The notes: generated by a model from the letters alone, not told the origin. 64,000 nucleotides of DNA from an uncultured virus (IMG/VR IMGVR_UViG_3300021399_004696) (IMGVR_UViG_3300021399_004696), one strand, 5' to 3'. Shown: positions 1,431 to 63,059, counted from the stretch's first letter. Made by a program: numbers and translations.

Positions 1431-1461
1431 CCGGGCTTTTTTAGGAGCTGCTGAGTAATAT
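1431..1461 (+). promoter_or_regulatory. CCGGG-N20 promoter
   Basis: CCGGG 1431, TAATAT 1456. Confidence 0.7.
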
Positions 1462-1493
1462 GAAGACATAATACAGAAAAAGGAGTGTTTATC

Positions 1494-2231
1494 ATGCACA
1501 ATTTTAAGAAAGTTATCGGAATGTCGGTTTTAGCAAGTATTTTGCTTATGGGCTGCAGTGCAACCGAACCTACAGCTTCATTGGCGCCAACAGACTCTTC
1601 TGCTGGGGTAGAAGGGACAGCAATCGAGACAAGCGCAGTAGCAGAGACTACAGGGGTAGAGAACGTATCTGACTTGTCAGGTTATACCTTAGATGAAGGG
1701 TTTATGCCGTTCAGCTCAATTACTATTAACGGGACTGAGTACGCGTTCCCTGCAGCTTACAGCACGCTGGCAGAAGTTTTTCCTCTTAACGCCGAAATTA
1801 TGGGTGAATTTGCTCCTAACGGGTTGTACCCCGGAATGGAAGTAGCGTCTTATGTAACGTCTGATGACGGAGCAACACCGATCTATCCCGGTATTACGAT
1901 CTCTGTCGGAAATTATTATCAGGATATGTCCGGCGGCGACACTATCGCTATAGAGGATGGTCTGGTAAGGCATATTATCATTAATACGTGGGGAGACGAG
2001 GGTACCGATTTCGAGATCATCATTCCAGGCGGCGGAAGCTTGGGCATGTCAGTTGATGAGATCGTAGAGCTTTACGGCGAGCCTTCTGAGGATAATATCC
2101 ACGATTACGAAGAGGGCGGTTGTGTATATTGTTATCCCGTATATTCCGAAGCTGACGAGAATCGTGCGATTTTTACTACTTTTACGTTCTTGAACGATCA
2201 GGTCGTAGGCATTGATCTTGAGTGGGTTTAA
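1494..2231 (+). CDS. lipoprotein, paralog of 5360..6064
   Basis: Lipobox LLMGC; shares PGGGxLGMS..EIVxLYGE and VVGIDLEW with 5360..6064. Confidence 0.75.
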   Translation: MHNFKKVIGMSVLASILLMGCSATEPTASLAPTDSSAGVEGTAIETSAVAETTGVENVSDLSGYTLDEGFMPFSSITINGTEYAFPAAYSTLAEVFPLNAEIMGEFAPNGLYPGMEVASYVTSDDGATPIYPGITISVGNYYQDMSGGDTIAIEDGLVRHIIINTWGDEGTDFEIIIPGGGSLGMSVDEIVELYGEPSEDNIHDYEEGGCVYCYPVYSEADENRAIFTTFTFLNDQVVGIDLEWV

Positions 2232-3465
2232 CATTCAGATACCGACCACTGTTCGAAGTGCTATGACGGCGTTAAAGAAGCAGGGGTATCAGGTATACGT
2301 GGTAGGTGGTGCAGTCAGGGATTGCGTTTTAGGTAAAGAGCCCCATGACTGGGACCTTGCTACTAATGCTGAGCCCGAACTTGTTAAAGAATGTTTTTCT
2401 AAAACCATTGACACAGGGTTAAAGCATGGTACGGTTACAGCGGTTATTGACGAATCACTTATTGAGATCACTACCTTCAGGACTGAAGGTAAATATTCAG
2501 ACGGCAGACATCCTGATTATGTTCGTTTTGTCGGAGATATTAAAGACGATCTGTTCAGGAGAGATTTTACTATCAACGCAATGGCTATTGATTATCAAGG
2601 GCGAATTGTCGACCCGTACGGAGGTCTGACCGACATTGAAGCAAAAAGGATTCGTTGTGTAGGCAATCCTCACGATCGATTTAGGGAAGATGCGCTTCGT
2701 ATGTTGAGAGCGCTAAGATTTGAGTCGACTTTGGGCTTTTCTCTTGACGATTCGGTAAAGGCAGCGATCAAACAGGATTTATCGCTTCTCAGTGCTACCG
2801 TATCTAAGGAAAGAGTCAGGGAAGAGCTTTGTAAGATGATCAAGGCTCCTAAGGCTTCGACCGGGTATAAAGATGCTGCCGAGCTTGGCGTGTTAAGCGA
2901 AATACATCCGATACTGGGGCGTTTGAGCAGCAATAGCCCGTGCCTGAAATATTTGGATGAAGCTCCCGAGGATCTTCAGATCCGTTGGGCAATACTTTTA
3001 CAAGAGCTTTGTTTTGCATATTCGGCTAAGGACGTACTGGCCTGCCTGCGTTTTTCATATGAAGATATGCACGGAGTTTGTGAATATATAAAATATTGCG
3101 ATTGTGTTGACATGTCTCTAAAAGAGGCCCGAAGATTTGCAGCTGACCACAACAAAGATTTTCTGCGCGGGCTGGCAGTCACACAAAGAGCTCACGGGCT
3201 TGTAACTACCCCCGGATATTGCAGTCAGGCTGTCGCAAAAGCTTGGGCGGCGATAAAAGACCACACAGCCATTAAGATGAAAGACCTGCTCATTGACGGG
3301 AATGACCTGATACAAATGGGTTATCAGGGCAAAGAAGTAGGGGATATGCTGAAGGATCTGTATGACGATTGTCTTGAAGAGCCTTCACACAATGAAAGAG
3401 AGTATCTGCTTTCTGTCGCAGAGGCGTGCCGTAAAAGGCCGGCAGAGCCTGACAGAACTTTATAA
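2212..3465 (+). CDS. cca: class II tRNA nucleotidyltransferase (CCA-adding enzyme family)
   Basis: VGGAVRD, DWDLAT, RRDFTINAM, DPYGG, EDALRMLRALRF motifs; start uncertain; ends in DRTL. Confidence 0.9.
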   Translation: MILSGFNIQIPTTVRSAMTALKKQGYQVYVVGGAVRDCVLGKEPHDWDLATNAEPELVKECFSKTIDTGLKHGTVTAVIDESLIEITTFRTEGKYSDGRHPDYVRFVGDIKDDLFRRDFTINAMAIDYQGRIVDPYGGLTDIEAKRIRCVGNPHDRFREDALRMLRALRFESTLGFSLDDSVKAAIKQDLSLLSATVSKERVREELCKMIKAPKASTGYKDAAELGVLSEIHPILGRLSSNSPCLKYLDEAPEDLQIRWAILLQELCFAYSAKDVLACLRFSYEDMHGVCEYIKYCDCVDMSLKEARRFAADHNKDFLRGLAVTQRAHGLVTTPGYCSQAVAKAWAAIKDHTAIKMKDLLIDGNDLIQMGYQGKEVGDMLKDLYDDCLEEPSHNEREYLLSVAEACRKRPAEPDRTL

Positions 3466-3574
3466 GATCGCAATCAAGCGACCTTTTTACCATGATCTCG
3501 TGTACCATGTGTACAAGGAGTTTTCGAAGACGTTCGGAGTAATCCGGGCGTCTTTTGTTGTTTTGTTTACTATT

Positions 3575-3605
3575 CCGGGCTATTTGTTTTGTTTATCAGT
3601 ACAGT
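3575..3605 (+). promoter_or_regulatory. CCGGG-N20 promoter
   Basis: CCGGG 3575, TACAGT 3600. Confidence 0.65.
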
Positions 3606-3638
3606 TAACTGTAAATAAAGATACAAGGAGGGGCAATC

Positions 3639-4292
3639 GTGCTTCGGCTACCCGATTTCAGCTACAATATTTTTGAACAGACGTTTGATCAGTTTAAATC
3701 GACGGTGAAAGATAAGTATCAGGAAGAGTTTGATCGTTGGCTGGGCCTCCGACGTGATATAACGGAGTATATCGTCTTTTTTATTGTCAGCATCATAATA
3801 CTTCTGCCGATGCTTGCTTTATTTGCTCTTATCAATCATTTTGTCCTGGGCGTGCTTGCTGTTGTCGGGTGTGTATTAGGGGTATGCATTAGTTGGAAGG
3901 TAATGCTTTATGCAGAACGCCGGTTGAAGACAACAGTGGAATGCATCAAAAACGAGTTTTCCTGGTTTTCTTCTGTAGGATACTGGACAGACGTATCTGC
4001 AGATAAGATCTTTAGTTGGATGACAGGTAAAAAAGATCCGGAGCAGTTCAGAAATTATCTTAATAAGGCCCAATCAGAGTTAACAGTAATTGAAAAATTG
4101 AAGGATTGTCCTTGTAACAAATATTATCAGGGTGGAGCAGTAATTGTAGATCAGAGGGTCCTTTTTGAAAACGCGCCTTTGTTAATGAATGTTAACAGTT
4201 CAGATAAGGTCTACGAATGTTCAGCGGAGTATAGCCGTGCGATGAACTATATGAAGGAATATATAACAAACATAAGTTTGTTAGCGAGTTAA
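3639..4292 (+). CDS. membrane protein (two TM segments)
   Basis: GTG start after AGGAGG; two hydrophobic helices. Confidence 0.65.
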   Translation: MLRLPDFSYNIFEQTFDQFKSTVKDKYQEEFDRWLGLRRDITEYIVFFIVSIIILLPMLALFALINHFVLGVLAVVGCVLGVCISWKVMLYAERRLKTTVECIKNEFSWFSSVGYWTDVSADKIFSWMTGKKDPEQFRNYLNKAQSELTVIEKLKDCPCNKYYQGGAVIVDQRVLFENAPLLMNVNSSDKVYECSAEYSRAMNYMKEYITNISLLAS

Positions 4293-4750: not shown

Positions 4751-4800
4751 CACAGGGTTTTGTATAATACCGGGCTTTTGAAAGACTCAGCGATTATAAT
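4747..4800 (+). promoter_or_regulatory. GTAACAC box plus CCGGG-N20-TATAAT promoter upstream of tRNA-fMet
   Basis: GTAACAC 4747, CCGGG 4770, TATAAT 4795; tRNA starts at 4813. Confidence 0.8.
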
Positions 4801-4812: not shown

Positions 4813-4889
4813 CGCGGAGAGGTGCTAATGGTGGCATTCCGGGCTCATAACCCGCGAGGTTGCAGGTTCGAATCCTGCCTCCGCAACCA
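4813..4889 (+). tRNA. initiator tRNA-fMet(CAT)
   Basis: C1:A72 mismatch, GGG/CCC anticodon stem with CTCATAA loop, GGTTCGAATCC, CCA. Confidence 0.9.
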
Positions 4890-5119: not shown

Positions 5120-5150
5120 CCGGGAGTTTTGAAAATTTTTGTGCTTTAGT
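5120..5150 (+). promoter_or_regulatory. CCGGG-N20 promoter (weak -10)
   Basis: CCGGG 5120, TTTAGT 5145. Confidence 0.5.
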
Positions 5151-7015: not shown

Positions 7016-7195
7016 ATGAAGAAAGCAGACGTTAACACAATGTACACTAAAGAGGAAAAGATCGGTATTGTAAGGGAGTATTTGATGTCGGATACCAGCC
7101 TTGGCGAGTTGTCCAGAAATTATAATATCCCCAAGAATACGATCCTTAGCTGGGTTACTAAGTTTAGGGCTTTCGTTAAGACAGAAAACGCTTAA
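7016..7195 (+). CDS. small helix-turn-helix protein (not in the ORF track)
   Basis: AAGGAG SD; MKKADVNTMYTKEEKIGIVREYLMSDTSLGELSRNYNIPKNTILSWVTKF resembles a transposase-type HTH. Confidence 0.65.
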   Translation: MKKADVNTMYTKEEKIGIVREYLMSDTSLGELSRNYNIPKNTILSWVTKFRAFVKTENA

Positions 7196-7225
7196 AAATC
7201 CGGCTTATAAACAGAAAGGAGCAAC

Positions 7226-7723
7226 ATGCGCAACCCTAACGTTAATAAATATAACAAGGGGCTTTATTCAGTAAGGACATTAAAGCCTGATGCAGATCCT
7301 GTTTGTTTGCCAAACGCAAAGACAGACTATTTAAAGATGAGTAAAAAGCGCAGGGCTCAACTGGAAAGTCAAAAGAGGCGATTTGGATTTACTGATACCG
7401 AAACGTGGGAGCTGGATTATACAGCTTCCGTTTGGCTCTATTCCCATATCAAGATGATGCTCGATATCGGCGGTAAGATCGTTAATTATGAGTGGGAGGG
7501 CGGATGGTCAGATGATCTGAGAAAAGATCTTCAGGATGTAGGGGTTGATACAGAGATATATCATAATGACAAACTTGTGTTCGGTTATATATGTGAACTT
7601 TTGGAAAAGGCTGATAAAATGTTCGCCACATCTGCAGATATACAGGAGGATGTAACGGCAACAGAACTTCGTGTAAAAGCCTTCAAAATTTTTGCAGTAA
7701 TGTTGCCGAGGGCTTGGTGGTAA
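7226..7723 (+). CDS. hypothetical protein
   Basis: AAGGAG SD; RFGFTDTETWELD...WW ending seen in phage orphans. Confidence 0.7.
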   Translation: MRNPNVNKYNKGLYSVRTLKPDADPVCLPNAKTDYLKMSKKRRAQLESQKRRFGFTDTETWELDYTASVWLYSHIKMMLDIGGKIVNYEWEGGWSDDLRKDLQDVGVDTEIYHNDKLVFGYICELLEKADKMFATSADIQEDVTATELRVKAFKIFAVMLPRAWW

Positions 7724-7779
7724 TATTGCCCTGAAAGAAGGGTAGATGTTATTATAAAAACACAGAAAAGGAGCAGATT

Positions 7780-8769
7780 ATGTACAGATCAATAGACTTA
7801 TTTGCGGGTATTGGCGGTATCCGCAAAGGTTTTGATAATGCTTTTGGGAAAGACATCAAAACCGTTTTTGTCAGTGAATGGGATGAACACGCCCAGAAAA
7901 CATATAAACTGAACTATCAAGATGACTTTGATATAGCAGGGGATATAACCAAGATCTCAGCAGACGAAGTCCCTGAGTTTGATATCTGTCTGGCCGGATT
8001 TCCATGTCAGGCGTTCTCGATGGCGGGGTCGCATATGGGGTTCAACGATAATTTTAAAGGCATGACCCGAGGTACCTTATTCAGGGAAGTTGTCCGGATA
8101 TGTGAACAACACAAGCCGAAAGTGATCTTTTGTGAGAACGTTAAGGGGCTGGTACACCACGATAAGGGCAGAACATTCAAAGTTATCAAAGGAGCTTTTG
8201 AAGAGATAGGTTATACCCTTTTTTGTAAGATCCTGAACAGCAAGGATTTTGGGGTGCCTCAGAACCGTGAGCGTATATACATGGTCGCGTTTAGAAACGA
8301 TCTGGGCATAAATGATTTTCATTTCCCTGAAGGTAGCCATAAAAATGTTTGTATCAGAGATATCCTTGAAGAGGCTCCGATCGACCCGAAGTATTATCTG
8401 TCTGATGTATATGTGGAAACATTGAAAAAGCATCGCGCAAGACATGAGGCTGCCGGACATGGTTTCGGGTATGTTATCCGCGATCTTGATGATATTGCCG
8501 GAACGATTGTTTGTGGTGGTATGGGTCGTGAAGGTAATCTTATCATAGACCATCGTGAACATAGCATGATTCCTACAACGCACATCAAAGGCGAGATCAA
8601 TAAAGAAGATATCAGGAAGATGACACCGAGAGAATGGGCCAGACTTCAGGGTTTTCCTGACGATTTTAAGATCGAACTTGCAGATACTCACATGTATAAG
8701 CAGTTTGGTAACAGCGTAACGGTCAATGTTATCGAGGCCATAGCAAAAGAGATAAAGAAAGTCTTATGA
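7780..8769 (+). CDS. C5-cytosine DNA methyltransferase, M.HpaII-like (predicted CCGG)
   Basis: FAGIGG, GFPCQ, ENV, QNRER, YKQFGNSV; variable region HGFGY...GGMGRE...PTTHIKGEIN...RKMTPREWARLQGFP resembles M.HpaII as recalled. Confidence 0.9.
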   Translation: MYRSIDLFAGIGGIRKGFDNAFGKDIKTVFVSEWDEHAQKTYKLNYQDDFDIAGDITKISADEVPEFDICLAGFPCQAFSMAGSHMGFNDNFKGMTRGTLFREVVRICEQHKPKVIFCENVKGLVHHDKGRTFKVIKGAFEEIGYTLFCKILNSKDFGVPQNRERIYMVAFRNDLGINDFHFPEGSHKNVCIRDILEEAPIDPKYYLSDVYVETLKKHRARHEAAGHGFGYVIRDLDDIAGTIVCGGMGREGNLIIDHREHSMIPTTHIKGEINKEDIRKMTPREWARLQGFPDDFKIELADTHMYKQFGNSVTVNVIEAIAKEIKKVL

Positions 8770-10037
8770 ACTGGAGATTAAACAAAGGCGATTGGGCGGA
8801 AGCCTACGTGTTCTGTAAGCTTTTAGCTGACGGGCGTATATATGCGGGTGACAAGGATCTGCAAAAGATCGCTGATGTTTATATGGACATAATCAAAGTT
8901 ATAAGAAAAAATGCGGGCAAAGATGCGGAATACCTGCGTCAGGCCCGCTATGTCGTGGCCTCCGAAGACGGCGTTGATTTTGTAACAGTTGCTTTAGATG
9001 AGTTTGAAAACGCCACGCAAAATCTCAAAGTCCGTATCACCGAAGGTGGGCAGAGCAGAGCTTTTGATATCCCTGAAGCCCAGGATTTTCTTTCTAATAA
9101 ATTACATATTAATAATATAAAAGAGAAGTGCGTTGCTGACGCGTCTGATGATAAGACAGACATCTTGGTAGAAGTTTTGAACAGTACGGACGGCAGCAGG
9201 GAGAAGGTCGGATTTTCCATAAAATCCCATTTCGGAAGTCCTGCTACGTTGTTTAATTGTTCTCAGGCGTCTAAGCTGGTGTATAAGATAAACGGGTGCG
9301 ACGAACATACAATGTACTTGCTCAACAGCATGAAAAACTCAGCGGGAGGGGCCGATGTGGACGCCAGAGTGCAATACATAGCCCAAAGCCCTTCTTTATC
9401 TTTAGAATTTCTCGGAAGTAAGATCATAAAGAATCAGTTTTACGGTGATCAGAAAGAGACTGGCGAGTTCTTCAGATGGAATCTGGAGCATTATGACGGG
9501 CGTATGCTCGATGTTTTCAGTTCCATGCTTTTATCAAGTTATGGGTATTACGGCGAACGGTCCGGCTCGTCTATGAACGAAGTGGTTGAAGCCGTAGCAA
9601 GCAGAAATCCGCTTCAGGTGCATAACCCCCGTTCAGTATATGAAGCAAAGTTTAAGGACTTCCTTTATAATGCTTTTGCGGGATTGACCGCATCTAAGAA
9701 GTGGAACGGGGTCCGTAAGATAAACGGCGGTTATATAGATGTTAAAAAAGACGGAGAGATCCTTTATTACAGGGCTGTCTCAGATGACCAGTTTACATCA
9801 TATCTTTTTAACAGCGTCCGTTTAGAACGTCCTGAACACGGGTGCATCTGTAAATTGAAGATCGCAGAGGCCGAGCAAAAACTTTCAGGTATTCCTATTC
9901 CGGCGACAGTTTTAGAGGAAGCTTCCAGGAGTGCCAGAAAGAAAGGCGATTACGGGTATGTCTATAAAGATACCGAATGGTATGACGGGAATCCGTATTG
10001 TATAGACCTTAATTATTCCTTCCGTTTCAAAAAGTGA
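8766..10037 (+). CDS. HpaII-family type II restriction endonuclease
   Basis: N-terminal NKGDWAEAY..KLL.DG.IYAGD, KTDI...GFSIKS...TLFN motifs; 4-nt overlap with the MTase gene. Confidence 0.8.
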   Translation: MNWRLNKGDWAEAYVFCKLLADGRIYAGDKDLQKIADVYMDIIKVIRKNAGKDAEYLRQARYVVASEDGVDFVTVALDEFENATQNLKVRITEGGQSRAFDIPEAQDFLSNKLHINNIKEKCVADASDDKTDILVEVLNSTDGSREKVGFSIKSHFGSPATLFNCSQASKLVYKINGCDEHTMYLLNSMKNSAGGADVDARVQYIAQSPSLSLEFLGSKIIKNQFYGDQKETGEFFRWNLEHYDGRMLDVFSSMLLSSYGYYGERSGSSMNEVVEAVASRNPLQVHNPRSVYEAKFKDFLYNAFAGLTASKKWNGVRKINGGYIDVKKDGEILYYRAVSDDQFTSYLFNSVRLERPEHGCICKLKIAEAEQKLSGIPIPATVLEEASRSARKKGDYGYVYKDTEWYDGNPYCIDLNYSFRFKK

Positions 10038-10148
10038 ATTATTAGTGAATTATATTTAGTAAAAAGCTAAATATCAATAACGTTTTATTGTAATTTTTAT
10101 GCCCCGGTGCTATTATCCGGATAAGAAAAAGCAAAGGGGAAATTGCTT

Positions 10149-10541
10149 ATGAAACAGGAGCCGGAGGGTAGCTACATCGATAATGATAATATCGGTGAAG
10201 TGATAAGACAACTAAGGCAGGAGAGAGGCCTCAGCATACAGGAATTGGCTTCCTTGACAGAGTATTCATATAATTACATAAACGGTATCGAGACCGGGCG
10301 TTATCAGCGGATCTCACTAAAATGCCTCAAACGGATTGCTACGGCACTCGGCGTGGAATATGTTGAACTTTTATCTCCCGAACCGTCTGCAGCGGAAGCT
10401 CCCGAACAGCTAACGACATTAACCTTGACTCAAGTGTTAGCCTTGCTTACATCCTTAAATGATCTGGATCTTCAGATCGTTATCCAGAAAGTAAGAGAAC
10501 TTCAGACTCTCCGAAAAAGAGAACGAGAGAACGGGCAATAA
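10149..10541 (+). CDS. XRE-family HTH regulator
   Basis: IRQLRQERGLSIQELA...IETG...SLKCLKRIATALGV. Confidence 0.85.
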   Translation: MKQEPEGSYIDNDNIGEVIRQLRQERGLSIQELASLTEYSYNYINGIETGRYQRISLKCLKRIATALGVEYVELLSPEPSAAEAPEQLTTLTLTQVLALLTSLNDLDLQIVIQKVRELQTLRKRERENGQ

Positions 10542-10616
10542 CATAACTGATGTACCAAAAAAGCCTCAAAACCCGATAAAAAAGAACAAAGCTCTAAACA
10601 AATATTCGAAAAACCG

Positions 10617-10935
10617 TGGCGTAAAAATGGCGTAAAGTACAAACGTTCTGTTTTGTAAACGCTTTATTTGCAGGCGTTTCCAGCTCCGCTTTTTATTTTA
10701 TGAACATTATGAACAAAGAACAAATGTTCTATTCTTGATGATCTTCGGCGGGTCTTTATAATTTGTTATTGGCCGATGTATCTTGGTATTTCTTTATTTT
10801 GCAAGGATTTAGAGTTTTTAGAACAATTTTGCCAAAAGTCCGTAAATTACCATATTTTATTATACTTTCACGGGTAGATGGCGTAAAAATGGCGTAAAAG
10901 TTATCTACATTCTTATTAACATTATTTTGGCGTAA
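10617..10935. repeat. integrase arm-type direct repeats (attP-like region)
   Basis: TGGCGTAAAAATGGCGTAAA at 10617 and 10879, TGGCGTAA at 10928, in non-coding DNA beside the integrase 3' end. Confidence 0.65.
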
Positions 10936-11146
10936 TTTTTCGAGGTCACAGCAAAAAGCCATTTTTGAAAAAAGTGAAACAATTGTCCTTGCTGCGTTTA
11001 TGGCAGATCTTTGCTGAATATCTGTTCAGTATATTACGTTCTTAGCCGAATAATGTTCATAAATTTGTTTCTCACAAAATTTTCCGCAAAAATAAGGCCG
11101 GAGATCTCCGACCTTACGGGCAAAATTTTTCGTTTCTTCTGATGCG

Positions 11147-12358
11147 TTACGACAGCTTTCTTCTTTTCTTTGCGGGCAGGGGTTCCGCTCCGAACAGGTT
11201 CATTGCGTCAAAGAGGTCCTTGTCATCGACATGGACATACAGATCCATCGTAACCGCGAGGGAGGAGTGACCGAGGATCTTTTGGAGAACTTTCGGTTCA
11301 ACGCCTTTCTTGATCGCTCTGGTAGCAAAAGTGTGTCTCAGATCGTGCAAGCTCAACCTGTCTATCCCCGGGATATCTTTGATTATATTTTTCAGCACGC
11401 TGTTATATGAGGCACTGGTTGCGGGGGCTTTCCCATCATTTCTTACAAATAGCAGCGAGTCGCCCTTAAAAGTAACTTTACCTCTGTTATAGTCCAGATA
11501 TGTGAAAGTTTCTTGACTGAGAGGGCCGTCCTGCATATACCTTGATAAACGCTCATCAGAGATCTTTTTAGCTATCTCGTACGCCCTTTGAGTCATCGGT
11601 ACGACACGATTGCCGGCGGGCGTTTTAGGGCCGTTTACGACCCATTTCTTGCACGCCGTATCATAATACAGATTTTTATTGACACGGATCGTTCGGTTAT
11701 ACAGATCGACATCCGCGAAGGTCAGTCCGCGAAGCTCGCTTATACGAAGCCCCGTATCGAGCAGGAATATAAAATGTTCATAGTAGTTACTATATACAGC
11801 CAACTCTTCAAACATTTTCTGCTGGGATTCATTCATATATCTTACCTTAAGCGGATTAGTCCTCAGAGCTGTAGGGAGGTACAGGTTAGCAGCGGGGTCA
11901 CTCTGGATCACGCCGTTTGAACGCGCAGCTTCAAACATCATCCGCCCCGTAGTCAGGATACCTGACACGGTACCGGACGAGAGACGCTCTGCGCACTGTT
12001 TAAGGATCTGCTGCAAGTGGATCGGTTTTACATCTTCCATCTGCATATCTCCGATCGCGTCGTGATAATAATTCTTATAGCGGGAGCGGTGCTGATTTAT
12101 CGTTTGGGGGCGTCTTCCGTAAAGGTGGTATTCCACCCAACGGTCAAACCACTCATCGACGGTCATGGCAGTAAAGGAACCTTTTCGGAACTCCGATTCT
12201 TTCTGAGCATCATAGAGCCATCGGGCAGCTTCGGGAAGGGAACTGAAGTACTTACTGATCCTCTTACCGTACGGAACGACCAAGCGGGCGCAGTACCGGC
12301 CGTCTTTTCTTTGAGACAGCCCGGGGCCGAGTTCCTTTCCTTTAAGATTCTTTCCCAT
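11147..12358 (-). CDS. int: tyrosine recombinase / integrase
   Basis: TGLRISE, KT, HDLRHTFAT, LGHS and Y catalytic motifs; N-terminal arm-binding domain. Confidence 0.95.
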   Translation of the reverse strand: MGKNLKGKELGPGLSQRKDGRYCARLVVPYGKRISKYFSSLPEAARWLYDAQKESEFRKGSFTAMTVDEWFDRWVEYHLYGRRPQTINQHRSRYKNYYHDAIGDMQMEDVKPIHLQQILKQCAERLSSGTVSGILTTGRMMFEAARSNGVIQSDPAANLYLPTALRTNPLKVRYMNESQQKMFEELAVYSNYYEHFIFLLDTGLRISELRGLTFADVDLYNRTIRVNKNLYYDTACKKWVVNGPKTPAGNRVVPMTQRAYEIAKKISDERLSRYMQDGPLSQETFTYLDYNRGKVTFKGDSLLFVRNDGKAPATSASYNSVLKNIIKDIPGIDRLSLHDLRHTFATRAIKKGVEPKVLQKILGHSSLAVTMDLYVHVDDKDLFDAMNLFGAEPLPAKKRRKLS

Positions 12359-12457
12359 ATTTCAAAAAGACCTCCTTATTTTGCGTGCATTTAACAAGGC
12401 CTGCAGTTCTGCACGCTTTTGAAAAAGTTTTTGGTTTTAATAAAAATATTAAAAGGG

Positions 12458-52040: not shown

Positions 52041-52043
52041 CAG

Positions 52044-52075: not shown

Positions 52076-52076
52076 G

Positions 52077-52107: not shown

Positions 52108-52137
52108 GATCATAGAAGTATATAAGGGGGAGTGTTT

Positions 52138-52455
52138 ATGGATGACAGAACGGTTATATTTTGTAATTTGTTGGCCCTTTTAGAAGCTTTGAAAGAAAAA
52201 CCGGATGTAGATCGCAAGACCCAACTTGCAGGCATTATAGATATTTTATCAGGTGTTTCCTTTGATCTGGACGATTGTGTTGATTGTATGGAACTTCTTC
52301 AACAAAGCGAAATAAATAAAGCTGAAAAAGAAGGGGCAGATAATAAGTGCTTGATTGAATTTCTTGGTGAAACACGGGAACAGTGCATATCAATTTTAGA
52401 CCAGATAGACGATCTGATTGAAAGGCTCGTTAACAAGCTTGACGATTTAATGTAA
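52138..52455 (+). CDS. hypothetical helical protein
   Basis: GGGGAG SD. Confidence 0.65.
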   Translation: MDDRTVIFCNLLALLEALKEKPDVDRKTQLAGIIDILSGVSFDLDDCVDCMELLQQSEINKAEKEGADNKCLIEFLGETREQCISILDQIDDLIERLVNKLDDLM

Positions 52456-52472
52456 CAATTCACGTTCTGGTG

Positions 52473-52501
52473 TTGAAAAGGGTAAAATCGTGTGTTAATA
52501 C
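52473..52501 (+). promoter_or_regulatory. SigA-like promoter upstream of the divergent sigma gene
   Basis: TTGAAA-17 bp-TAATAC. Confidence 0.45.
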
Positions 52502-52560
52502 AAAGACGTAGTGTAATAGTTTAAGGAATTGTTTCGACTAATACAAGGTGTGTGAACCAA

Positions 52561-53598
52561 ATGACATTAAATTGTAATGTTGCTTTACAGGACATCGAAA
52601 AACTGGTTGCGGTCAGTAAGAATGGAGAAATATCGGAGAAGGACTTTAACAGCGTAGGAGAACTGCGTAATCTTTCTCCTGATGAGTTGGAAGAATTATA
52701 CGACGTTGTTTCTCAGAAGTTTACTATCGTTTCAGACCCGGGTACAACAGAGGATGAATCAGATCTTGCTGACGGCAGCCTGGACAGTGTTACTATGTAC
52801 TTTAAAGAAATCGCCGGCTTCCCCTTATTGACCAGAGAGCAGGAAAAGGAGTATTTTACCCGCTATAGAGAGGGAGAGAAGGACCTCAGAGAGCTCCTTA
52901 TTACATCAAACTTAAAGCTCGTAGTGCCCGTAGCTAAGCAGTATCTTAATAACGGAGTCCCGCTGAACGATCTCATTCAGGAGGGCAACTGCGGACTTAT
53001 GACGGCTGTAGATAAATTTGATGTCAGTAAGGGTTTTAAGTTTTCGACGTATGCTCGTTGGTGGATTGTCCGCTATGTGAGGACATGTATTGCTGAAGCA
53101 GGCCGAACCATAAGGATTCCTCTTAACGTAGGAATTCTTTTAAATAAGATCAAATACGCAGAGCGTATGTTAACGCAGGAGTTTAACCGCCAGCCTACCG
53201 AAGAGGAATTGTCAAACAAGACCGGTATTCCGGAGGAAAAGATTCGTCTCATAAAGCAGAGTACCTTACAACCGCTGTCATTAGACACCCCCTTATCAGA
53301 TGAAGAAGGAGCCTGTACTATAGCTGACTTCATTCCGTATGACGGGGAAGAGCCTGACCAGGAAGCTAATCTTTATATATATAATCAGGATATGTCTGCT
53401 TTGTTAAGTCTGTTGACCGAAAAGGAATACGAAGTCCTTAAATACAGACTCGGTCTTGAAGGCGAGACGCCTCACACTTTAAAAGAAATAGGGAATTTGG
53501 TTGGTTTGAGTAACGAAAGAGTCCGTCAGATCGGGGCTAAAGCTATAAGAAAGCTTGGCAGATCTTCTTTAGCTAAAAGGCTGAAAGACTCTTATTAA
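52561..53598 (+). CDS. sigma-70 family sigma factor, divergent
   Basis: DSVTMYFKEI, SNLKLVV, DLIQEGNCGL, FSTYARWW, RTIRIP, TLKEIG..SNERVRQI. Confidence 0.92.
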   Translation: MTLNCNVALQDIEKLVAVSKNGEISEKDFNSVGELRNLSPDELEELYDVVSQKFTIVSDPGTTEDESDLADGSLDSVTMYFKEIAGFPLLTREQEKEYFTRYREGEKDLRELLITSNLKLVVPVAKQYLNNGVPLNDLIQEGNCGLMTAVDKFDVSKGFKFSTYARWWIVRYVRTCIAEAGRTIRIPLNVGILLNKIKYAERMLTQEFNRQPTEEELSNKTGIPEEKIRLIKQSTLQPLSLDTPLSDEEGACTIADFIPYDGEEPDQEANLYIYNQDMSALLSLLTEKEYEVLKYRLGLEGETPHTLKEIGNLVGLSNERVRQIGAKAIRKLGRSSLAKRLKDSY

Positions 53599-53613: not shown

Positions 53614-53644
53614 CCGGGCACTTTGATTTCAGAGTTGCTATCAT
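53614..53644 (+). promoter_or_regulatory. CCGGG-N20 promoter
   Basis: CCGGG 53614, TATCAT 53639. Confidence 0.75.
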
Positions 53645-53681
53645 ATCTCCAGAACACAAGATATGGAAAGGAGATACCGTT

Positions 53682-56665: not shown

Positions 56666-56696
56666 CCGGGTGTTTTGCATTTCCGCGGCTCATAAT
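56666..56696 (+). promoter_or_regulatory. CCGGG-N20 promoter
   Basis: CCGGG 56666, CATAAT 56691. Confidence 0.75.
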
Positions 56697-57501: not shown

Positions 57502-60040
57502 AAATTGGTTAAGCATACTGGTTTGCGCCTGTTTGACAGCAAACATTTTTGCCGTAAACGTTTATGGTGACGTTGATGATACCACGGAATCTTCAGGGGA
57601 GGGTCAGGAGACAACGCAGGAACTTGTTCAGGCAGAGCTGCCAGACGATCCCGAAGATCCTGATAATACAGCCGAGATGTCGGAAGATCTGTCGGATTCT
57701 TCGGAAGATCAAGACAATTCCGATGTTTCCGAATCGTCAAGCGATGTTGAAAATAATGAAGAGGGCAATCCTGTCGAATCACCATCAGACGATAACACAG
57801 AGGGTTCAGATGAGCTTATGCCGGATAATGCTGTTTCGGAGGATCTGCCTGAGCCCGAGATTAATTCGGATGAGATCGAGTCGGAAGTAACCGAGTCAGG
57901 CGCGACAGCATCAGTCCAGCCTTTGGATTTTGTTGATGCACCTTTAACTCTTTCCAGAAACGCAACTCTGATTGAACTTTCATATGTCAACGGGAAATAT
58001 GTATATAACAACGAAGAGCACAACAGCTTCCCAACGTCAGGCTCTTATATCTTGATGTCAGATATGCCCATTTCCGCTCAGGTTGCCGTAAACGGGGAAC
58101 TGAGTATTGATCTGGGCGGATTCACTATTACAGACACTATTACGACCAGCAAGCAGCCGTTTTCGGTTCAACAGAATGATATTCTTAACATAAGCGGTAC
58201 GGGGACGATTCAAGGTAACTCTAATGTTTCTCATTGTTGCATTTTTATAAACAACGGCGGCGTAGTTAACATGTCCGGAGGCACTATTGACGGATTCCGA
58301 GCTACCGGAGTCGGCGGTGGTGTCAGCGTTAATCATAAAGATGACGTATTTACAATGTCGGGCAACGCCACCATTCAAAACTGCGGTGTAACGAACAACG
58401 GCCACGGCGGAGGTGTTGGTGTACGTCGCGGTACTTTTTATATGACCGACAATGCATGCGTTACCGGTTGCTATATATTAGGAACACCAGCTGAAAAGAA
58501 CGGGAACGGGGCAGGAATTTCTATAGGTGAAAGCGCCACAATGTATCTGTCAGGGAATGCAACGGTTACCAATAATACCGGAGTAGGATACCATGGTGCC
58601 GGCATCGACTTATGGAGCAACAGCCATCTTTATCTTTCAGGATCGCCTACGGTTCTGAATAACACTAACGGCAGGAATGAACCATGTAATCTCTATGTCG
58701 GCCCGACTCTTACCATAAACGGGCCTCTTACCGGAGCGCCTAATTCTATCGGCATCTCCATTCAGACTTATCCGACTTTTACTTCAGGGCTGTTAGCTAA
58801 CAACCCGGGTTCCACTATAGATGATCTTCTTGCTATATTTGATGCAGACCGTTATCACTGGACTTCTATTCCGAGAGCTTCTGAATATGAGATCATAGAT
58901 GACAACGGGACGGAAGCTAAAGTAGCGCCTACCATTACCGTTTATTACATGACTAACTATGGCAACAATACGGTTTGGAAGACTCAGGAAATGGCCCCCG
59001 GCGGTCAAGCGGTCAGTCCGGGCAACCCTACGCGTACCGGCTATAATTTCGGAGGCTGGTATCGCACCCCGCAAACAACAGGCAGTGCTTGGAGTTTTAG
59101 CAATAACAATGTTCCGCATGATGCTGATCTGTATCTATACGCAAAGTGGACCTTAAAGACGTATAACATGACGGTAACCGTTACAGGAGATTCGGACCAA
59201 GTAGTTGCATCGTCTTCCGCTACGGTAAATTACGGTTCTGACTGGACGTTCTCGGCTACGGCTAATCAAGGCTATAAGATCGTTTCTGTAAAGATAGACA
59301 ATGTAACTCAGACTTTAACGGATGATCCGACAACCGATTATACGCATCTTTTCAGTGCCATTGACAGAGCACACTCGGTTACGATCGACATTGCGCCGAT
59401 AACTTACACAGTTCAGGCAACGGTAGTCAACAATGCTGATGCGGCGCACTGGACCTTCTCAAATTATACTGCACCCGTTCAAGTGCAACACGGGTCTGGT
59501 CTGAACATATCGGGCAGTGTAGATGCTCAATATTATCTCGTTTCGGCGACGCTTAACAATCAGCCATTAACGCTTTCCGATTACGCTGTTTCCGATACTG
59601 ACTATTCCTTTGATCTGACAAACATTACTGAAGATACAACATTGGAAATCGAGGTAGGGCAGATGGTACCCATTACCATTACTGCTTCGGGGGAGCCGAC
59701 AGCTCTTTCTGTATCTTCGACACCTTCGCATTATTCAGTACCGAACAGTTCAGAGCAGATAACGATTCAGGTCGAACAGGGATATATTATCGAGGCCATT
59801 TATATCGACAACGTACTTCTGCCCACTCCTTTAGGTTTAGATGTCTATACCTGGGAACAGAATGTAGGGGGCAGCGGGCACTCTATTGAAGTCCGGATCA
59901 CACAGGCCCGAGTTATCATTCCGGAGGCCACAGGTTTTGCTCAAAACAAAGCTCCGATCATTGCGTTGTTAGCAGTTGTCGGAACGCTTTTCGGGCTTGC
60001 ATTAAAGACAAAAAGGCGCGGTAACACTACAGAACAGTAA
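57488..60040 (+). CDS. cell-surface protein (signal peptide, beta-helix-like GGG repeats, InlB B-repeat-like domain, C-terminal anchor)
   Basis: PTRTGYNFGGWY...LYAKW; IPEATG followed by a TM segment and KTKRR. Confidence 0.8.
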   Translation: MKVYKNWLSILVCACLTANIFAVNVYGDVDDTTESSGEGQETTQELVQAELPDDPEDPDNTAEMSEDLSDSSEDQDNSDVSESSSDVENNEEGNPVESPSDDNTEGSDELMPDNAVSEDLPEPEINSDEIESEVTESGATASVQPLDFVDAPLTLSRNATLIELSYVNGKYVYNNEEHNSFPTSGSYILMSDMPISAQVAVNGELSIDLGGFTITDTITTSKQPFSVQQNDILNISGTGTIQGNSNVSHCCIFINNGGVVNMSGGTIDGFRATGVGGGVSVNHKDDVFTMSGNATIQNCGVTNNGHGGGVGVRRGTFYMTDNACVTGCYILGTPAEKNGNGAGISIGESATMYLSGNATVTNNTGVGYHGAGIDLWSNSHLYLSGSPTVLNNTNGRNEPCNLYVGPTLTINGPLTGAPNSIGISIQTYPTFTSGLLANNPGSTIDDLLAIFDADRYHWTSIPRASEYEIIDDNGTEAKVAPTITVYYMTNYGNNTVWKTQEMAPGGQAVSPGNPTRTGYNFGGWYRTPQTTGSAWSFSNNNVPHDADLYLYAKWTLKTYNMTVTVTGDSDQVVASSSATVNYGSDWTFSATANQGYKIVSVKIDNVTQTLTDDPTTDYTHLFSAIDRAHSVTIDIAPITYTVQATVVNNADAAHWTFSNYTAPVQVQHGSGLNISGSVDAQYYLVSATLNNQPLTLSDYAVSDTDYSFDLTNITEDTTLEIEVGQMVPITITASGEPTALSVSSTPSHYSVPNSSEQITIQVEQGYIIEAIYIDNVLLPTPLGLDVYTWEQNVGGSGHSIEVRITQARVIIPEATGFAQNKAPIIALLAVVGTLFGLALKTKRRGNTTEQ

Positions 60041-60093
60041 TGGGTTTGGTGTAAGGGTATACTAAGCATAAATATAGTCGGAGGTACATTAGT

Positions 60094-60714: not shown

Positions 60715-60723
60715 GGGTAATAT

Positions 60724-61119: not shown

Positions 61120-61150
61120 CCGGGTGTTCTTGATTTAATCGTGAAATAAT
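61120..61150 (+). promoter_or_regulatory. CCGGG-N20 promoter
   Basis: CCGGG 61120, AATAAT 61145, after a terminator at 61083-61106. Confidence 0.75.
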
Positions 61151-61181
61151 AGAGTTAAGAAGAACACAGGAGGTGATCGGA

Positions 61182-61667
61182 ATGTTATATTTCGGCAGCT
61201 TTAAAGATATTGATACAACTAAATATTATAAGGTTGTATTGGCAGTTCGCCATCTTCAGCATCCTGTAAAGGGGGATAATGTTATTCACGCACCTGTTCT
61301 TGCTCCGTCTGCGTATCTGGTTGCTAAGATCAGAAAGGAAAAAGAAGCCGGAACGTTTGATTATCCTATGTGGCGTGCTGTTTTTGTTGCTGAGTATATG
61401 TCGGAACTGATTGCCAGTGTTAACGCTCAGAAGACCTTGATAAATCTTTATAAGGCGGGATGTGAAAAGGATATTCTTGTATGTTGCTACTGCCCTGATG
61501 ATACTGTATGCCACAGAAGCGTGATCCAGGGACTTATGCAGGGAAGAGGAAGAAAGCAGAACAACGATGTGGTTGTGTCAGATAAGGATTACAGCTATTT
61601 CTATGACGACTTCCGCAGGCTTGTGGATTACAAGATAAAGCAACATCAGATACGCCCGAATAGTTAA
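61182..61667 (+). CDS. DUF488-like protein
   Basis: LAPS..L, LVCCYCPDDTVCHRS. Confidence 0.65.
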   Translation: MLYFGSFKDIDTTKYYKVVLAVRHLQHPVKGDNVIHAPVLAPSAYLVAKIRKEKEAGTFDYPMWRAVFVAEYMSELIASVNAQKTLINLYKAGCEKDILVCCYCPDDTVCHRSVIQGLMQGRGRKQNNDVVVSDKDYSYFYDDFRRLVDYKIKQHQIRPNS

Positions 61668-61717
61668 TTCCGGGCGTTTTGCTTATTTATGTGGTTGATT
61701 TAAAGAGGAGAAAGCAA

Positions 61718-61981
61718 ATGAAAAAAGAAAAAAGACAGGCTTACAAAATAAGATATTTATCAAAGATCCAGAACAAAAGACTGAAGACCTTGTTGTTTGC
61801 GCACAGCAGACGAATGGTTGGAGGTTTTACTTTAGGAGATTGTTTAGGGTTGGAGTATTACGAAGACGATAAAGCTTCGATCGAGTTCGATCCTAAGACC
61901 GGGGAGCCGGTTTGTAAATTTGCAGACGGGGATTCGGCGATCTCATATTTAGAAGAAATCAGAAGGAGGTGTTCGAGATGA
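61718..61981 (+). CDS. hypothetical protein
   Basis: GAGGAG SD; overlaps the sigma start. Confidence 0.6.
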   Translation: MKKEKRQAYKIRYLSKIQNKRLKTLLFAHSRRMVGGFTLGDCLGLEYYEDDKASIEFDPKTGEPVCKFADGDSAISYLEEIRRRCSR

Positions 61982-62979
61982 CCGAGTTGGCTGAAATTTT
62001 AAAGAAGGTTGTCAATAACACAATTAAGATGAAGGATCTTGAGCCTTTCGTTGAAGGTTTGGATGAAAAAGATTCCAAGGCTTTGTTCGATCTGCTCGTA
62101 GACAGGGGTATTGACATTATTGAAGAGGATGAGCCTTTGACATATACAGGCAATGACAGCAGCGTAGCCCAATATCTGAAGGAAATGGCACGCTATCCTC
62201 TGTTGACCCACGAGGAAGAAATTGACCTGGCAAACAGAGTTCAGGCCGGGGATGAAGAAGCTAAGGAGATCTTAGTTTGCAGCAATCTTCGTCTGGTTGT
62301 ATCCATTGCTAAGAAATATACTAACAGGGGTCTGCCTATCCTGGATCTCATACAGGAAGGAAATATAGGTCTTATGAAGGCTGTTTCTTACTTTGATCCA
62401 GAAAAAGGATTCCACTTCAGTACTTATGCTACCTGGTGGATCAGGCAGTCTGTTACCAGAGCTATTGCGGACCAGGCCAGAACGATCAGGATTCCTGTTC
62501 ATATGGTAGAGCAGATCAATAAGCTTGCCAGAACACAGAGAACTTTAACGCAGACCCTCGGCAGAGAGCCTACGATCGAAGAGCTTGCTGAAGCAACAGG
62601 GCATTCAATAGAAAAGATTCAGGACATCCAGAAAGTGTCTCAGGACCCCATCTCTTTGGATATGCCGGTCGGGGAAGACAAAGAAACACCTCTTTCCGAG
62701 TTTTTGAGTGTAAACGAAAGCACTTACAGTGCTCCGGATGAAGAAGCAAATCGAGAGGCGTTCAGAGAGGCGCTCAGTAAGAGTATGACTATTCTGTCCG
62801 AAAGAGAACAGATCATACTTAATCTGCGTTTCGGTCTGGATGACGGCAGATCGAGAACTTTGGAAGAAGTCGGTAACAGACTTGGAATAACCAGAGAAAG
62901 AGTCCGTCAGATAGAAGCAAAAGCTCTTAGAAAGCTTGGCAAGAATTCTCACGCAAGAATACTCCAGGGGTTCTATTAA
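61978..62979 (+). CDS. RpoD/SigA-like sigma factor with canonical regions 2 and 4
   Basis: SNLRLVVSIAKKY, DLIQEGNIGLMKAV, FSTYATWWIRQ, RTLEEVG..TRERVRQIEAKALRKL. Confidence 0.95.
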   Translation: MTELAEILKKVVNNTIKMKDLEPFVEGLDEKDSKALFDLLVDRGIDIIEEDEPLTYTGNDSSVAQYLKEMARYPLLTHEEEIDLANRVQAGDEEAKEILVCSNLRLVVSIAKKYTNRGLPILDLIQEGNIGLMKAVSYFDPEKGFHFSTYATWWIRQSVTRAIADQARTIRIPVHMVEQINKLARTQRTLTQTLGREPTIEELAEATGHSIEKIQDIQKVSQDPISLDMPVGEDKETPLSEFLSVNESTYSAPDEEANREAFREALSKSMTILSEREQIILNLRFGLDDGRSRTLEEVGNRLGITRERVRQIEAKALRKLGKNSHARILQGFY

Positions 62980-63005
62980 GTTGAATTTTGCTTTAAGCAT
63001 TTCAT

Positions 63006-63059
63006 GTAACACGTATAAAAGCGTCATTCCGGGCGCTTTTATATTGTCATTTATATATT
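63006..63059 (+). promoter_or_regulatory. GTAACAC box plus CCGGG-N20 promoter
   Basis: GTAACAC 63006, CCGGG 63029, TATATT 63054. Confidence 0.72.

Follow-up and report, generated by a model that had tools for sequence, protein, structure and literature searches.

Occurrence and geometry of the CCGGG motif

The question raised by this locus is which signal starts the genes of the element and which protein reads it. The window is a 64,000-nt stretch from an uncultured virus (IMGVR_UViG_3300021399_004696). The element appears to be about 200 kb in size and phage- or plasmid-like, and, as read here, it would start most of its genes from promoters of a type peculiar to it. The window contains neither a capsid gene nor a terminase gene. 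An earlier note had proposed a private promoter class in which CCGGG precedes a -10-like hexamer by 20 nt. All 23 plus-strand CCGGG sites that it listed are present, and the hexamers are as quoted (five GATAAT, two AATAAT, and one each of TATAAT, TACAAT, TATACT, CATAAT, and TAAAAT). T occupies position 6 of the hexamer in 23/23 sites and A occupies position 2 in 22/23, the exception being the site at 5120 (TTTAGT).

The pattern CCGGG-N20-NANNNT was matched 33 times in the window, 27 times on the plus strand and 6 times on the minus strand, compared with an expectation of 5.10 ± 2.32 and a maximum of 11 in 100 dinucleotide shuffles. Intergenic and coding sites were separated by our own rough ORF calls, made with a crude caller that left 15.3% of the window intergenic. 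On this division, NANNNT followed at a gap of 20 nt in 22/29 intergenic plus-strand CCGGG sites, in 0/6 intergenic minus-strand sites, and in 11/55 coding sites (5/24 plus, 6/31 minus). The difference between intergenic plus-strand and coding sites was significant (Fisher P = 1e-6), as was the excess over the intergenic NANNNT baseline of 8.2% (binomial P = 1e-18). As the earlier note had anticipated, the A/T pattern was less frequent at coding sites. The spacing was sharp, with 22 sites at 20 nt and 0 to 7 at each other gap from 12 to 29.

The motif also emerged without prior selection. In an unbiased k-mer count, CCGGG was the most enriched intergenic 5-mer, and TTCCGGG, CCGGGTG, and CCGGGCT were likewise among the top intergenic words. 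In a matrix scan, the highest ranks were taken by 24 intergenic plus-strand CCGGG sites; the best site lacking CCGGG scored 10.8 bits, inside the shuffle range. Sequence identity among sites outside the core was low (median, 32%; maximum, 55%); thus, the sites did not arise by recent duplication of one another. CCGGG was found in 23 of the 36 gaps that precede plus-strand genes.

Sequence features of the predicted promoters

Several columns that played no part in selecting the sites were conserved. T stood two bases before CCGGG in 20/22 sites, and the box was followed by a T-rich stretch (T at +7 and at +8 in 17/22 each). A was found at hexamer position 4 in 16/22, at hexamer position 5 in 17/22, and at index 37 in 17/22. 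When these unselected columns were scored by leave-one-out, the 22 sites had a median of +6.9 bits, and the remaining 68 CCGGG sites had one of -16.5 (P = 9e-11). The hexamer consensus, t/g-A-t-A-A-T, with A second and T sixth in 22/23, is that of a SigA-type -10. TGn preceded the hexamer in 9/22 sites against a baseline of 6%, and six of the seven promoters with G at -12 also carried TGn. A pyrimidine-purine step lay 7 nt past the hexamer in 17/22 sites.

The earlier note had placed CCGGG in the position of TTGACA, and the sequence agrees with this: in 0/23 CCGGG gaps did a TTGACA-like hexamer 16 to 18 nt upstream of a -10 give a combined -35/-10 match of at least 9/12. The would-be -35 hexamer positions read GGG-y-k-T instead. 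Canonical matches of at least 9/12 were present in three gaps, two in a foreign restriction-modification/HTH module and one before a sigma gene described below (sigma-2). The latter (TTCACG-18-TAAAAT) is no better than chance, as about 0.13 such matches are expected per gap of that size by our own estimate (55 matches in 20 kb, both strands).

Within the sequences compared, the term "private" was supported as well. The motif was not found in the foreign module, where TTG-type promoters occur instead, in viral contigs matching a strict pattern, or in a related Butyrivibrio megaplasmid. Besides restriction-modification genes, this inserted module contains part of a transposase as well as an integrase and an excisionase of the Tn916 type; its C5-methyltransferase gene adjoins an HpaII-family endonuclease gene (7780-10037). 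Each computational check suggested by the earlier note gave a favorable outcome. Taken together, these sequence data support its interpretation, and we put the probability that the CCGGG-N20-NANNNT sites are promoters of a genuine class confined to the element, with the layout proposed below, at roughly 0.55.

Genes downstream of the CCGGG sites

Transcription starts were predicted 7 nt after the hexamer. From there, the distance to a Shine-Dalgarno-led start codon was 12 to 48 nt. All sites described here are on the plus strand. The first two predicted promoters lie at 1431-1461 (TAATAT), before ORF 1494-2231 and a CCA-adding enzyme gene, and at 3575-3605 (TACAGT), before ORF 3639-4292. At 4770-4800 (TATAAT), the predicted start, 4807, is 6 nt before the tRNA-fMet (4813-4889) that the earlier note had reported here. 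This tRNA has the anticodon CAT and carries two hallmarks of initiators, namely three G-C pairs adjoining the anticodon loop and the mismatch C1xA72. At the variant site 5120-5150 (TTTAGT, position 2 not A), the predicted start coincides with an in-frame ATG (5157).

Further predicted promoters are found at 12919-12949 (TAATAT; before ORF 13004-13774 and a topoisomerase-like gene), 22816-22846 (TAAACT; before ORF 22873-23358), 26262-26292 (TGtGAATAT; preceded by a strong terminator), 29019-29049 (TATCAT; before NrdD), 33798-33828 (TGgGATAAT; the top matrix score), 34222-34252 (GATAAT), 36394-36424 (TAAAAT; preceded by a terminator), 39337-39367 (TGcTACGTT; before an RNA ligase gene), 44584-44614 (TGtGATAAT), 46137-46167 (TGcGATAAT), and 46806-46836 (TACAAT). 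The one at 47853-47883 (AATAAT) precedes a RecD-like helicase gene, which is possibly leaderless, its in-frame ATG being the predicted start (47890). The remainder lie at 50468-50498 (TGcGATAAT; before a PARP-like ADP-ribosyltransferase gene), 52077-52107 (TGaGACAAT; before ORF 52138-52455 and then a divergent sigma gene, with no terminator-like site listed in the gap between the two), 53614-53644 (TGcTATCAT; the same in the near-identical metagenome contig L006), 54968-54998 (TATACT), 56666-56696 (CATAAT; preceded by a terminator), 61120-61150 (TGaAATAAT; heading a unit that ends with a canonical sigma gene), and 63029-63059 (TATATT; a terminator-like hairpin has the box in its loop).

The observation that many sites follow a terminator was confirmed for 9/23, which have a separate, complete terminator-like hairpin within 80 nt upstream. 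In the window, Rfam 15 gave only eight tRNA matches at gathering score, none overlapping a site.

A second box and two sigma genes

A second promoter-like class is marked by GTAACAC about 30 nt before a -10 hexamer. In four promoters, GTAACAC lies 6 to 7 nt upstream of CCGGG; it is 6 nt upstream at 12919, 34222, and 47853, and at 29019 it forms an 8-bp hairpin with the box. In six cases it stands alone, all on the plus strand: 18113-18155 (N30, TAAGAT), 20016-20058 (N30, AATAAT), 31383-31424 (N29, TATACT; before a DNA polymerase exonuclease-like gene), 38588-38630 (N30, TATGCT), 45104-45146 (N30, TACAAT), and 60021-60063 (N30, TATACT). Neither this box nor the sigma genes described next figured in the earlier note.

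Two sigma genes are encoded on the plus strand. Sigma-1 (61969-62979) is a canonical RpoD/SigA-like protein whose DNA-reading helices are close to those of Bacillus SigA, and it retains all canonical reader residues. Sigma-2 (52552-53598) is a divergent RpoD-like protein in which regions 1.2, 2, 3, and 4 are present, and it is 42% identical to sigma-1, its canonical paralogue. In a set of 122 sequences (119 canonical, 3 of the sigma-2 type), its helices 2.4 (WWIVRYVRT), 3.0 (RIPLNVGILLNKI), and 4.2 (SNERVRQIG) are unique. Sigma-2 is unlike all 119 nearest homologues at the equivalents of E. coli R436, Q437, T440, H455, E458, and R584. The changed helices are those that read -12, TGn, and -35; reader roles are described for Q437, T440, H455, E458, R584, and E585 (PMC2613000; bioRxiv 10.1101/2022.11.29.518332). 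Altered DNA-reading residues are present in this sigma-70-family protein, which the element itself encodes.

Candidate readers of the CCGGG box

In the proposed mechanism, a sigma-70-family factor on the host core RNA polymerase would read a SigA-type -10 (nATAAT, often with TGn), and transcription would start 7 nt downstream of the hexamer, at a pyrimidine-purine step. The upstream contact would be the invariant CCGGG at -37 to -33, replacing TTGACA, with a T at -39 on one side and a run of T from -30 to -27 on the other. At its rigid 20-nt distance from the hexamer, the box would fall within the normal footprint of sigma region 4.

We infer that sigma-2 is the most likely reader of the class, a candidate whose chances fall somewhat short of even. 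In sigma-2, the Glu that reads G:C at -33 is kept, the Arg that reads C:G at -31 is lost, and both residues that read T at -12 are lost. This fits the motif, since the last G of CCGGG is at -33, C is found at -31 in 2/22 only, and the base at -12 is free. Against sigma-2, its TGn readers (the H455 and E458 equivalents) are lost, whereas 9/22 promoters carry TGn, including six of the seven in which -12 is G, a pattern that suits a reader of the SigA type, be it sigma-1 or the sigma of the host. In addition, region 4.2 of sigma-2 has a single known base-contacting residue changed (R584 to N), which alone seems too little for a switch from TTGACA to CCGGG. With sigma-2 downstream of the CCGGG promoter at 52077, the class would feed back onto its own expression. 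Because both sigma genes are downstream of CCGGG promoters, the class must first be read by something present at entry.

A fuller version is doubtful at present: a private code of two boxes, in which sigma-2 would read CCGGG (-37 to -33) plus nATAAT, a second factor would read GTAACAC (about -49 to -43), and box recognition might depend on methylation by the element's own HpaII-type m5C methyltransferase. If so, CCGG methylation within each box would let the element tell its own marked DNA apart.

The best-surviving alternative, rather unlikely in our estimate, is sigma appropriation: host SigA or sigma-1 would read the -10 and TGn, and a separate element protein would bind CCGGG in lieu of the -35 contact. 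T4 middle promoters work in this manner, with MotA together with AsiA replacing the -35 contact. An activator would account for the class firing ahead of the synthesis of the element's sigma factors. It also agrees with the SigA-like -10/TGn signature, in which TGn compensates for G at -12 in 6/7 promoters, with the full set of readers in sigma-1 and the missing TGn readers in sigma-2, and with GTAACAC, which by occurring both beside CCGGG and alone resembles modular activator sites. However, 95 window ORFs compared with PHROGs and 80 ORF queries against Pfam yielded neither MotA nor AsiA, and the sole matches to known regulator types in those scans were an XRE-type HTH and a transposase-type HTH, both in the foreign module. 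Where a 5-bp box is asymmetric, rigidly spaced, and inside the footprint of sigma region 4, contact by a sigma is the more typical case, and an activator would leave the unique changes in sigma-2 without explanation.

A very improbable view is that CCGGG is not a positive element, the sites being extended -10 promoters and the box a repressor operator or a mark for CCGG methylation or restriction. The methyltransferase and HpaII-family endonuclease have their presumed CCGG target in each box, and TGn, present in 9/22 sites, can make a -35 dispensable (PMC2613000). However, TGn is missing from 13/22 sites, and at several the hexamer is weak enough that a contact farther upstream would be required. 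CCGG is neither avoided nor enriched (209 observed versus 251 expected), the conserved word (CCGGG plus T at -2) is asymmetric and confined to a single strand, and the restriction-modification genes, lying in an inserted module, are unlikely to be part of an ancestral circuit. That CCGGG(C/T)(T/G)TTT is a terminator by-product, the descending arm and U-tail ahead of the next promoter, is hardly credible: the T-run after the box, the 7- to 12-bp stems by which the box pairs with upstream sequence at 29019, 33798, and 34222, and a CCGGG hairpin at 61670 with no hexamer after the box speak for it, but 14/23 sites lack a box-using stem of at least 5 bp, only 4/23 resemble an intrinsic terminator (a GC-rich stem using the box, then a T-run), the 9/23 with a terminator have it complete and separate upstream of the box, and an exact 20-nt spacing to the -10 is not expected of terminators.

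Comparison with known systems

The proposed private promoter class resembles T4 middle promoters in design: a host-type -10 (TAnnnT) is kept, the -35 is swapped for a box specific to the mobile element, and the genes served include those for nucleotide metabolism, replication, and tRNAs. The MotA box is about 9 bp, centered at -30, with a gap of 12 ± 1. Here, CCGGG spans -37 to -33, keeps a fixed 20-nt gap, and matches the MotA box in neither position nor sequence, and the element, with no MotA or AsiA homologue among the 95 window ORFs compared with PHROGs, encodes full-length sigma factors.

At the middle and late promoters of Bacillus phage SPO1, which are read by the phage sigmas gp28 and gp33/34, the host core is directed to private promoters by a sigma-70-family protein of the element, as proposed here. 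Those sigmas are small, diverge strongly, and use -35 and -10 boxes both unlike those of the host, whereas here the -10 is SigA-like and the candidate is a complete RpoD-like protein. The SPO1 cascade is described as using host SigA first and then phage sigmas (PMC13401047). "Group 2" jumbo phages without their own polymerase are described as having sigma factors that are "more complete" and closely resemble cellular RpoD (PMC7824862), and the present element likewise has RpoD-like sigma genes. The portion of that source drawn on here gives no promoter motif for those sigmas; here, a motif and altered readers can be paired, and the pairing of the motif with specific altered residues of sigma-2 is a testable hypothesis.

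Extended -10 promoters share the TGn at -15/-14 seen in 9/22 sites, and TGn can compensate for a poor -35 (PMC2613000), but an invariant upstream box at a fixed distance is foreign to that class and 13/22 sites have no TGn. Comparable with the proposed reader are engineered sigma-70 variants altered at residues 584 to 589, which take GC-rich -35 targets such as CCGCCG and GGAACC (bioRxiv 10.1101/2022.11.29.518332); in both cases, -35 specificity would be shifted toward GC-rich boxes via changes in the recognition helix. Those variants were designed, whereas sigma-2, with a putative CCGGG target, would be natural and also differs in regions 2.4 and 3.0. If the assignment is true, sigma-2 would represent an orthogonal RpoD-type factor of natural origin, with rewired -12, TGn, and -35 readers.

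The CCGGG sites as a probable promoter class

The intergenic plus-strand CCGGG sites very probably form a real promoter class (probability of about 0.85), as predicted from sequence. The 23 sites and hexamers described in the earlier note were all present; 22 fit the full pattern CCGGG-N20-NANNNT, and the site at 5120 is a variant (TTTAGT). In the window, which covers 64 kb of an element of about 199 kb, the pattern occurred 33 times (27 on the plus strand and 6 on the minus strand) versus 5.10 ± 2.32 times in shuffles. When CCGGG sites were divided into intergenic and coding sites by rough ORF calls, NANNNT was found at a gap of 20 nt in 22 of 29 intergenic plus-strand sites, compared with 5 of 24 coding plus-strand, 6 of 31 coding minus-strand, and 0 of 6 intergenic minus-strand sites (Fisher P = 1e-6; binomial P = 1e-18 versus a baseline of 8.2%). 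Thus, the A/T pattern at +20 is not equally frequent at coding sites. The distance between box and hexamer was exact, with 22 sites at a gap of 20 and 0 to 7 at each other gap from 12 to 29.

In an unbiased word count, CCGGG was the top intergenic plus-strand 5-mer, above the ribosome-site words, and TTCCGGG (11 intergenic versus 1 coding) led the 7-mers, followed by CCGGGTG, CCGGGCT, and GTAACAC. A leave-one-out score calculated from unselected columns only had a median of +6.9 bits for the 22 sites versus -16.5 bits for the 68 other CCGGG sites (P = 9e-11). The 11 other CCGGG sites with a chance NANNNT at +20 scored at most 1.6 and were likewise separated from the 22 sites (P = 9e-6). In a matrix scan, the best 24 matches were all plus-strand intergenic CCGGG sites (the 22 sites, 5120, and 61670), and no near-miss of the core scored above the shuffle range; therefore, the CCGGG core is effectively invariant. 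Recent duplication of the sites was rejected because identity outside the core had a median of only 32% and a maximum of 55%. The top minus-strand match (17.3 bits) was a full pattern at 43566 to 43596 (CCGGGCTTT ... TATCAT) inside the ORF at 43514 to 44155, possibly an antisense promoter.

Among the unselected columns, T was present two bases 5' of CCGGG in 20 of 22 sites, and the box was directly followed by C or T and then by G or T. The spacer was T-rich, with T at +7 and at +8 in 17 of 22 sites each, and 9 of the 22 sites had TGn at the extended -10 position. The hexamer consensus across the 22 sites was t/g-A-t-A-A-T. With the first base of CCGGG as index 0, both A at index 37 and a pyrimidine-purine step at index 36/37 were found in 17 of 22 sites. 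When the hexamer is set at -12 to -7, CCGGG spans -37 to -33, and its last G falls at -33, where TTGACA has its G. Whereas the spacer of ordinary promoters is 17 nt in about 50% and 16 or 18 nt in about 20% each (PMC2613000), the CCGGG class has a rigid 20-nt geometry.

Gene starts, canonical promoters, and terminators

In a survey of 36 curated gaps of at least 50 nt preceding plus-strand genes, 23 contained CCGGG, 7 contained GTAACAC without CCGGG, and 6 contained neither box. The predicted start lay 12 to 48 nt, mostly 19 to 36 nt, upstream of a start codon with a ribosome site. The predicted starts at 47890 (RecD-like helicase ORF) and 5157 (68-codon ORF) coincided exactly with an in-frame ATG, and the messages from both may be leaderless. 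The site that the earlier note had placed just before tRNA-fMet is indeed there: its predicted start is 6 nt 5' of the tRNA at 4813, and this tRNA bears hallmarks of an initiator. Four predicted leaders (46168 to 46205, 50499 to 50535, 53645 to 53680, and 61151 to 61180) had AGAACA(C/G)A in common just 5' of the ribosome site, three of them in the longer form AGAACA(C/G)AAGATAT, which may represent a shared translational or RNA-binding signal.

The proposal that CCGGG stands in place of TTGACA agrees with the survey, in which no CCGGG gap had a canonical -35/-10 match of at least 9/12; none was found in the GTAACAC gaps either. Only three such matches were obtained among the surveyed gaps. Two were TTG-type promoters with TGn in the foreign module, an inserted restriction-modification/integrase segment: TTGCCC-18-TGnTATTAT preceding the methyltransferase gene and TTGTAA-17-TGnTATTAT preceding the XRE-type HTH gene. 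The third, TTCACG-18-TAAAAT preceding the gene for the divergent sigma factor sigma-2, was no better than chance. The foreign-module cases, only two in number, suggest that the host reads ordinary promoters. Canonical promoters were not enriched in the 44- to 64-kb region (55 versus 41.8 ± 8.1).

The statement that many copies follow a terminator must be narrowed to 9 of 23 sites, which have a separate complete terminator upstream of the box. Convincing stems between the box and upstream sequence were found at 29019, 33798, and 34222. The box as a terminator arm was rejected, with 14 of 23 sites lacking a stem of at least 5 bp that uses the box and 4 of 23 being terminator-like. An Rfam search of the window returned tRNAs only. 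The CCGGG at 61670, without a -10 hexamer at +20, belongs to a strong hairpin (61643 to 61685; 7 G-C-rich pairs and then TTTTG), probably a terminator or attenuator between the ORF at 61182 to 61667 and the unit ending with the gene for sigma-1, the canonical sigma factor.

A second box, GTAACAC

GTAACAC was found 14 times on the plus strand and twice on the minus strand versus 4.7 expected in all, and 12 of the 14 plus-strand copies had a good -10 hexamer 29 to 32 nt downstream. At the six plus-strand sites without CCGGG (18113, 20016, 31383, 38588, 45104, and 60021), the gap was exactly 30 in five and 29 in one, and TGn was absent. The occurrence of five of 14 at a single gap had a P value of 2e-5 (4-of-6 hexamer match required). 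At four other plus-strand sites (12906, 29005, 34209, and 47840), GTAACAC preceded CCGGG by 6 to 7 nt, with a hexamer gap of 31 to 32. The box, placed at about -49 to -43, probably defines another promoter class or else serves as an upstream activator site.

Sigma factors and the candidate reader of the box

The window contains two sigma-70-family genes, both complete and both downstream of CCGGG promoters: sigma-2 (52552 to 53598, plus strand; promoter 52077) and sigma-1 (61969 to 62979, plus strand; promoter 61120). Sigma-1 aligns with Bacillus SigA over residues 62 to 335 and has canonical helices, namely, WWIRQ (region 2.4), RIPVHMVE (region 3.0), and TRERVRQIE (region 4.2). Sigma-2 is 42% identical to sigma-1 and retains all sigma regions, with the helices WWIVRYVRT (region 2.4), RIPLNVGILLNKI (region 3.0), and SNERVRQIG (region 4.2). 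In a set of 122 sequences, the 119 homologues not of the sigma-2 type had TRERIRQIE in region 4.2 (119/119), WWIRQ (n = 118) or WWIRH (n = 1) in region 2.4, and RIPVHM in region 3.0 (n = 113; six were outside the search pattern).

The Escherichia coli residue numbering was checked against residues named in PMC2613000 and bioRxiv 10.1101/2022.11.29.518332. According to these sources, the base readers are Q437 and T440 (-12), H455 and E458 (TGn), R584 (-31), and E585 (G:C at -33). In sigma-2, Q437, T440, H455, and E458 are changed, R584 is changed to N, and E585 is kept. In the motif, -33 is always G, -31 is C in just 2 of 22 sites, and -12 is T in just 12 of 22, which the sigma-2 residues match in part. 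Sigma-2 is the leading, though tentative, candidate for the reader of the CCGGG class. One altered base contact in region 4.2 seems too little for a box so unlike TTGACA, and the TGn pattern (present in 9 of 22 sites and in 6 of the 7 sites where -12 is G) misfits sigma-2. A SigA-type reader would require such a pattern, which favors a SigA-type sigma acting with a separate box-binding protein; this arrangement is somewhat less likely than reading by sigma-2. A scan of 95 ORFs against PHROGs and of 80 ORF queries against Pfam revealed no MotA, AsiA, or other known regulator except two HTH proteins, both in the foreign module.

Three genes follow one another behind two CCGGG promoters at 50538 to 53598: those for a PARP-like ADP-ribosyltransferase and sigma-2, with a 105-codon all-helical ORF between them. 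Together they may form a polymerase-takeover cluster. For the ORF that separates promoter 52077 from sigma-2, the only structural look-alikes were of the long-helix type. In several large metagenomic or viral contigs (L004/L038, L017, L019-L021, L028, and L046), a pair of RpoD-like sigma genes fell within about 20 kb; the region 2.4 helix was canonical in one member and altered in the other. All these sigmas kept Q where sigma-2 has R.

The element and its foreign module

The contig bearing the proteins of the window comprises 198,822 bases. Two variant contigs, of 10.3 kb and 12.6 kb, encode members of the same 90%-identity protein clusters. Nearly all genes of the window are on the plus strand with GGAGG-type ribosome sites, and nine tRNA genes are present. 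Gene products include a CCA-adding enzyme, NrdD, a ThyX-like protein, RNA ligase, and a polynucleotide-kinase-like protein; a RecD-like helicase, a DNA-polymerase exonuclease-like protein, and a topoisomerase-like protein; and a PARP-like ADP-ribosyltransferase and YodL/DUF3846. The element is jumbo-phage-like or megaplasmid-like. CTAG was almost missing from the whole window (5 versus 63 expected by a maximal-order Markov estimate), and the other 4-base palindromes were at 0.67 to 1.20 of expectation.

The segment at 7016 to 12912 is an inserted mobile module with a transposase-type HTH fragment (7016 to 7195), a C5 methyltransferase (7780 to 8769), an HpaII-family endonuclease (8766 to 10037), an XRE-type HTH protein (10143 to 10541), and, on the minus strand, a Tn916-type integrase (11147 to 12358) and excisionase (12458 to 12661). 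It contained no CCGGG promoter. CCGG, the presumed target of its restriction-modification enzymes, sits within every CCGGG box.

No close relative of the element was found in collections of phages, plasmids, viral contigs, or genome contigs, and 8 kb of the window had no megablast match among phages and plasmids. The RecD-like protein had no relative among viral or genome contigs, homologues of the topoisomerase-like protein reached at most 53% identity, and the best plasmid match of the PARP-like protein was on Butyrivibrio pCY360 (31%). A member of the Clostridia is the likely host, because the nearest named homologues were Clostridia RpoD proteins (sigma) and one Butyrivibrio megaplasmid protein.

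Comparison with other elements and known systems

Sigma-2 relatives in viral and metagenome contigs were at most 50% identical, apart from one 2.2-kb contig (L006), which differed from the window by only 2 coding SNPs and was too alike to show box conservation. Five viral loci had at most one pattern match each. Over the viral contigs, the strict pattern gave four single matches; a CCGGG class in these four contigs was rejected because the looser pattern gave just 1 to 5 matches each, both strands together. Plasmid pCY360 (361 kb) does not share the motif, as 17 matches were found versus 12 in the control. The motif had been regarded as private to the element, and this holds insofar as it was found neither in viral contigs beyond the four single strict matches nor in pCY360.

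In Butyrivibrio proteoclasticus pCY360 (L085; NC_014389.1), ATGTCAG recurred with T-rich sequence before it and a ribosome site 10 to 20 nt after it, in at least 5 of the 14 gaps shown (before genes at locus positions 14944, 16617, 19493, 23084, and 28999). The word appears to be a distinct promoter-like motif private to this plasmid; no mention of a promoter motif was found in the available part of the pCY360 genome paper.

RpoD-like sigma genes are known in large phages. Many occur in uncultivated large phages and megaplasmids, and the available part of a jumbo-phage comparative paper names no target for them (PMC7824862). By titles and abstracts, a literature search for a CCGGG promoter motif with a sigma factor or phage returned nothing relevant. 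The new features are the CCGGG box, its rigid 20-nt geometry, the GTAACAC box, and a primary-type sigma with unusual residues at base-reading positions.

For mobile elements with a sigma factor and promoter code of their own, the known cases come from a few model phages. Here, about 23 predicted promoters with a noncanonical box occur beside a full-length primary-type sigma in which only base-touching residues are unusual. The pairing of CCGGG with sigma-2 would be a directly testable natural example of housekeeping sigma retargeting and may yield an orthogonal sigma/promoter pair for Firmicutes. The CCGGG sites also outline the operons of an element in which most genes have no known function. 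The CCGGG class follows the same logic as the T4 middle promoters and the SPO1 sigma cascade.
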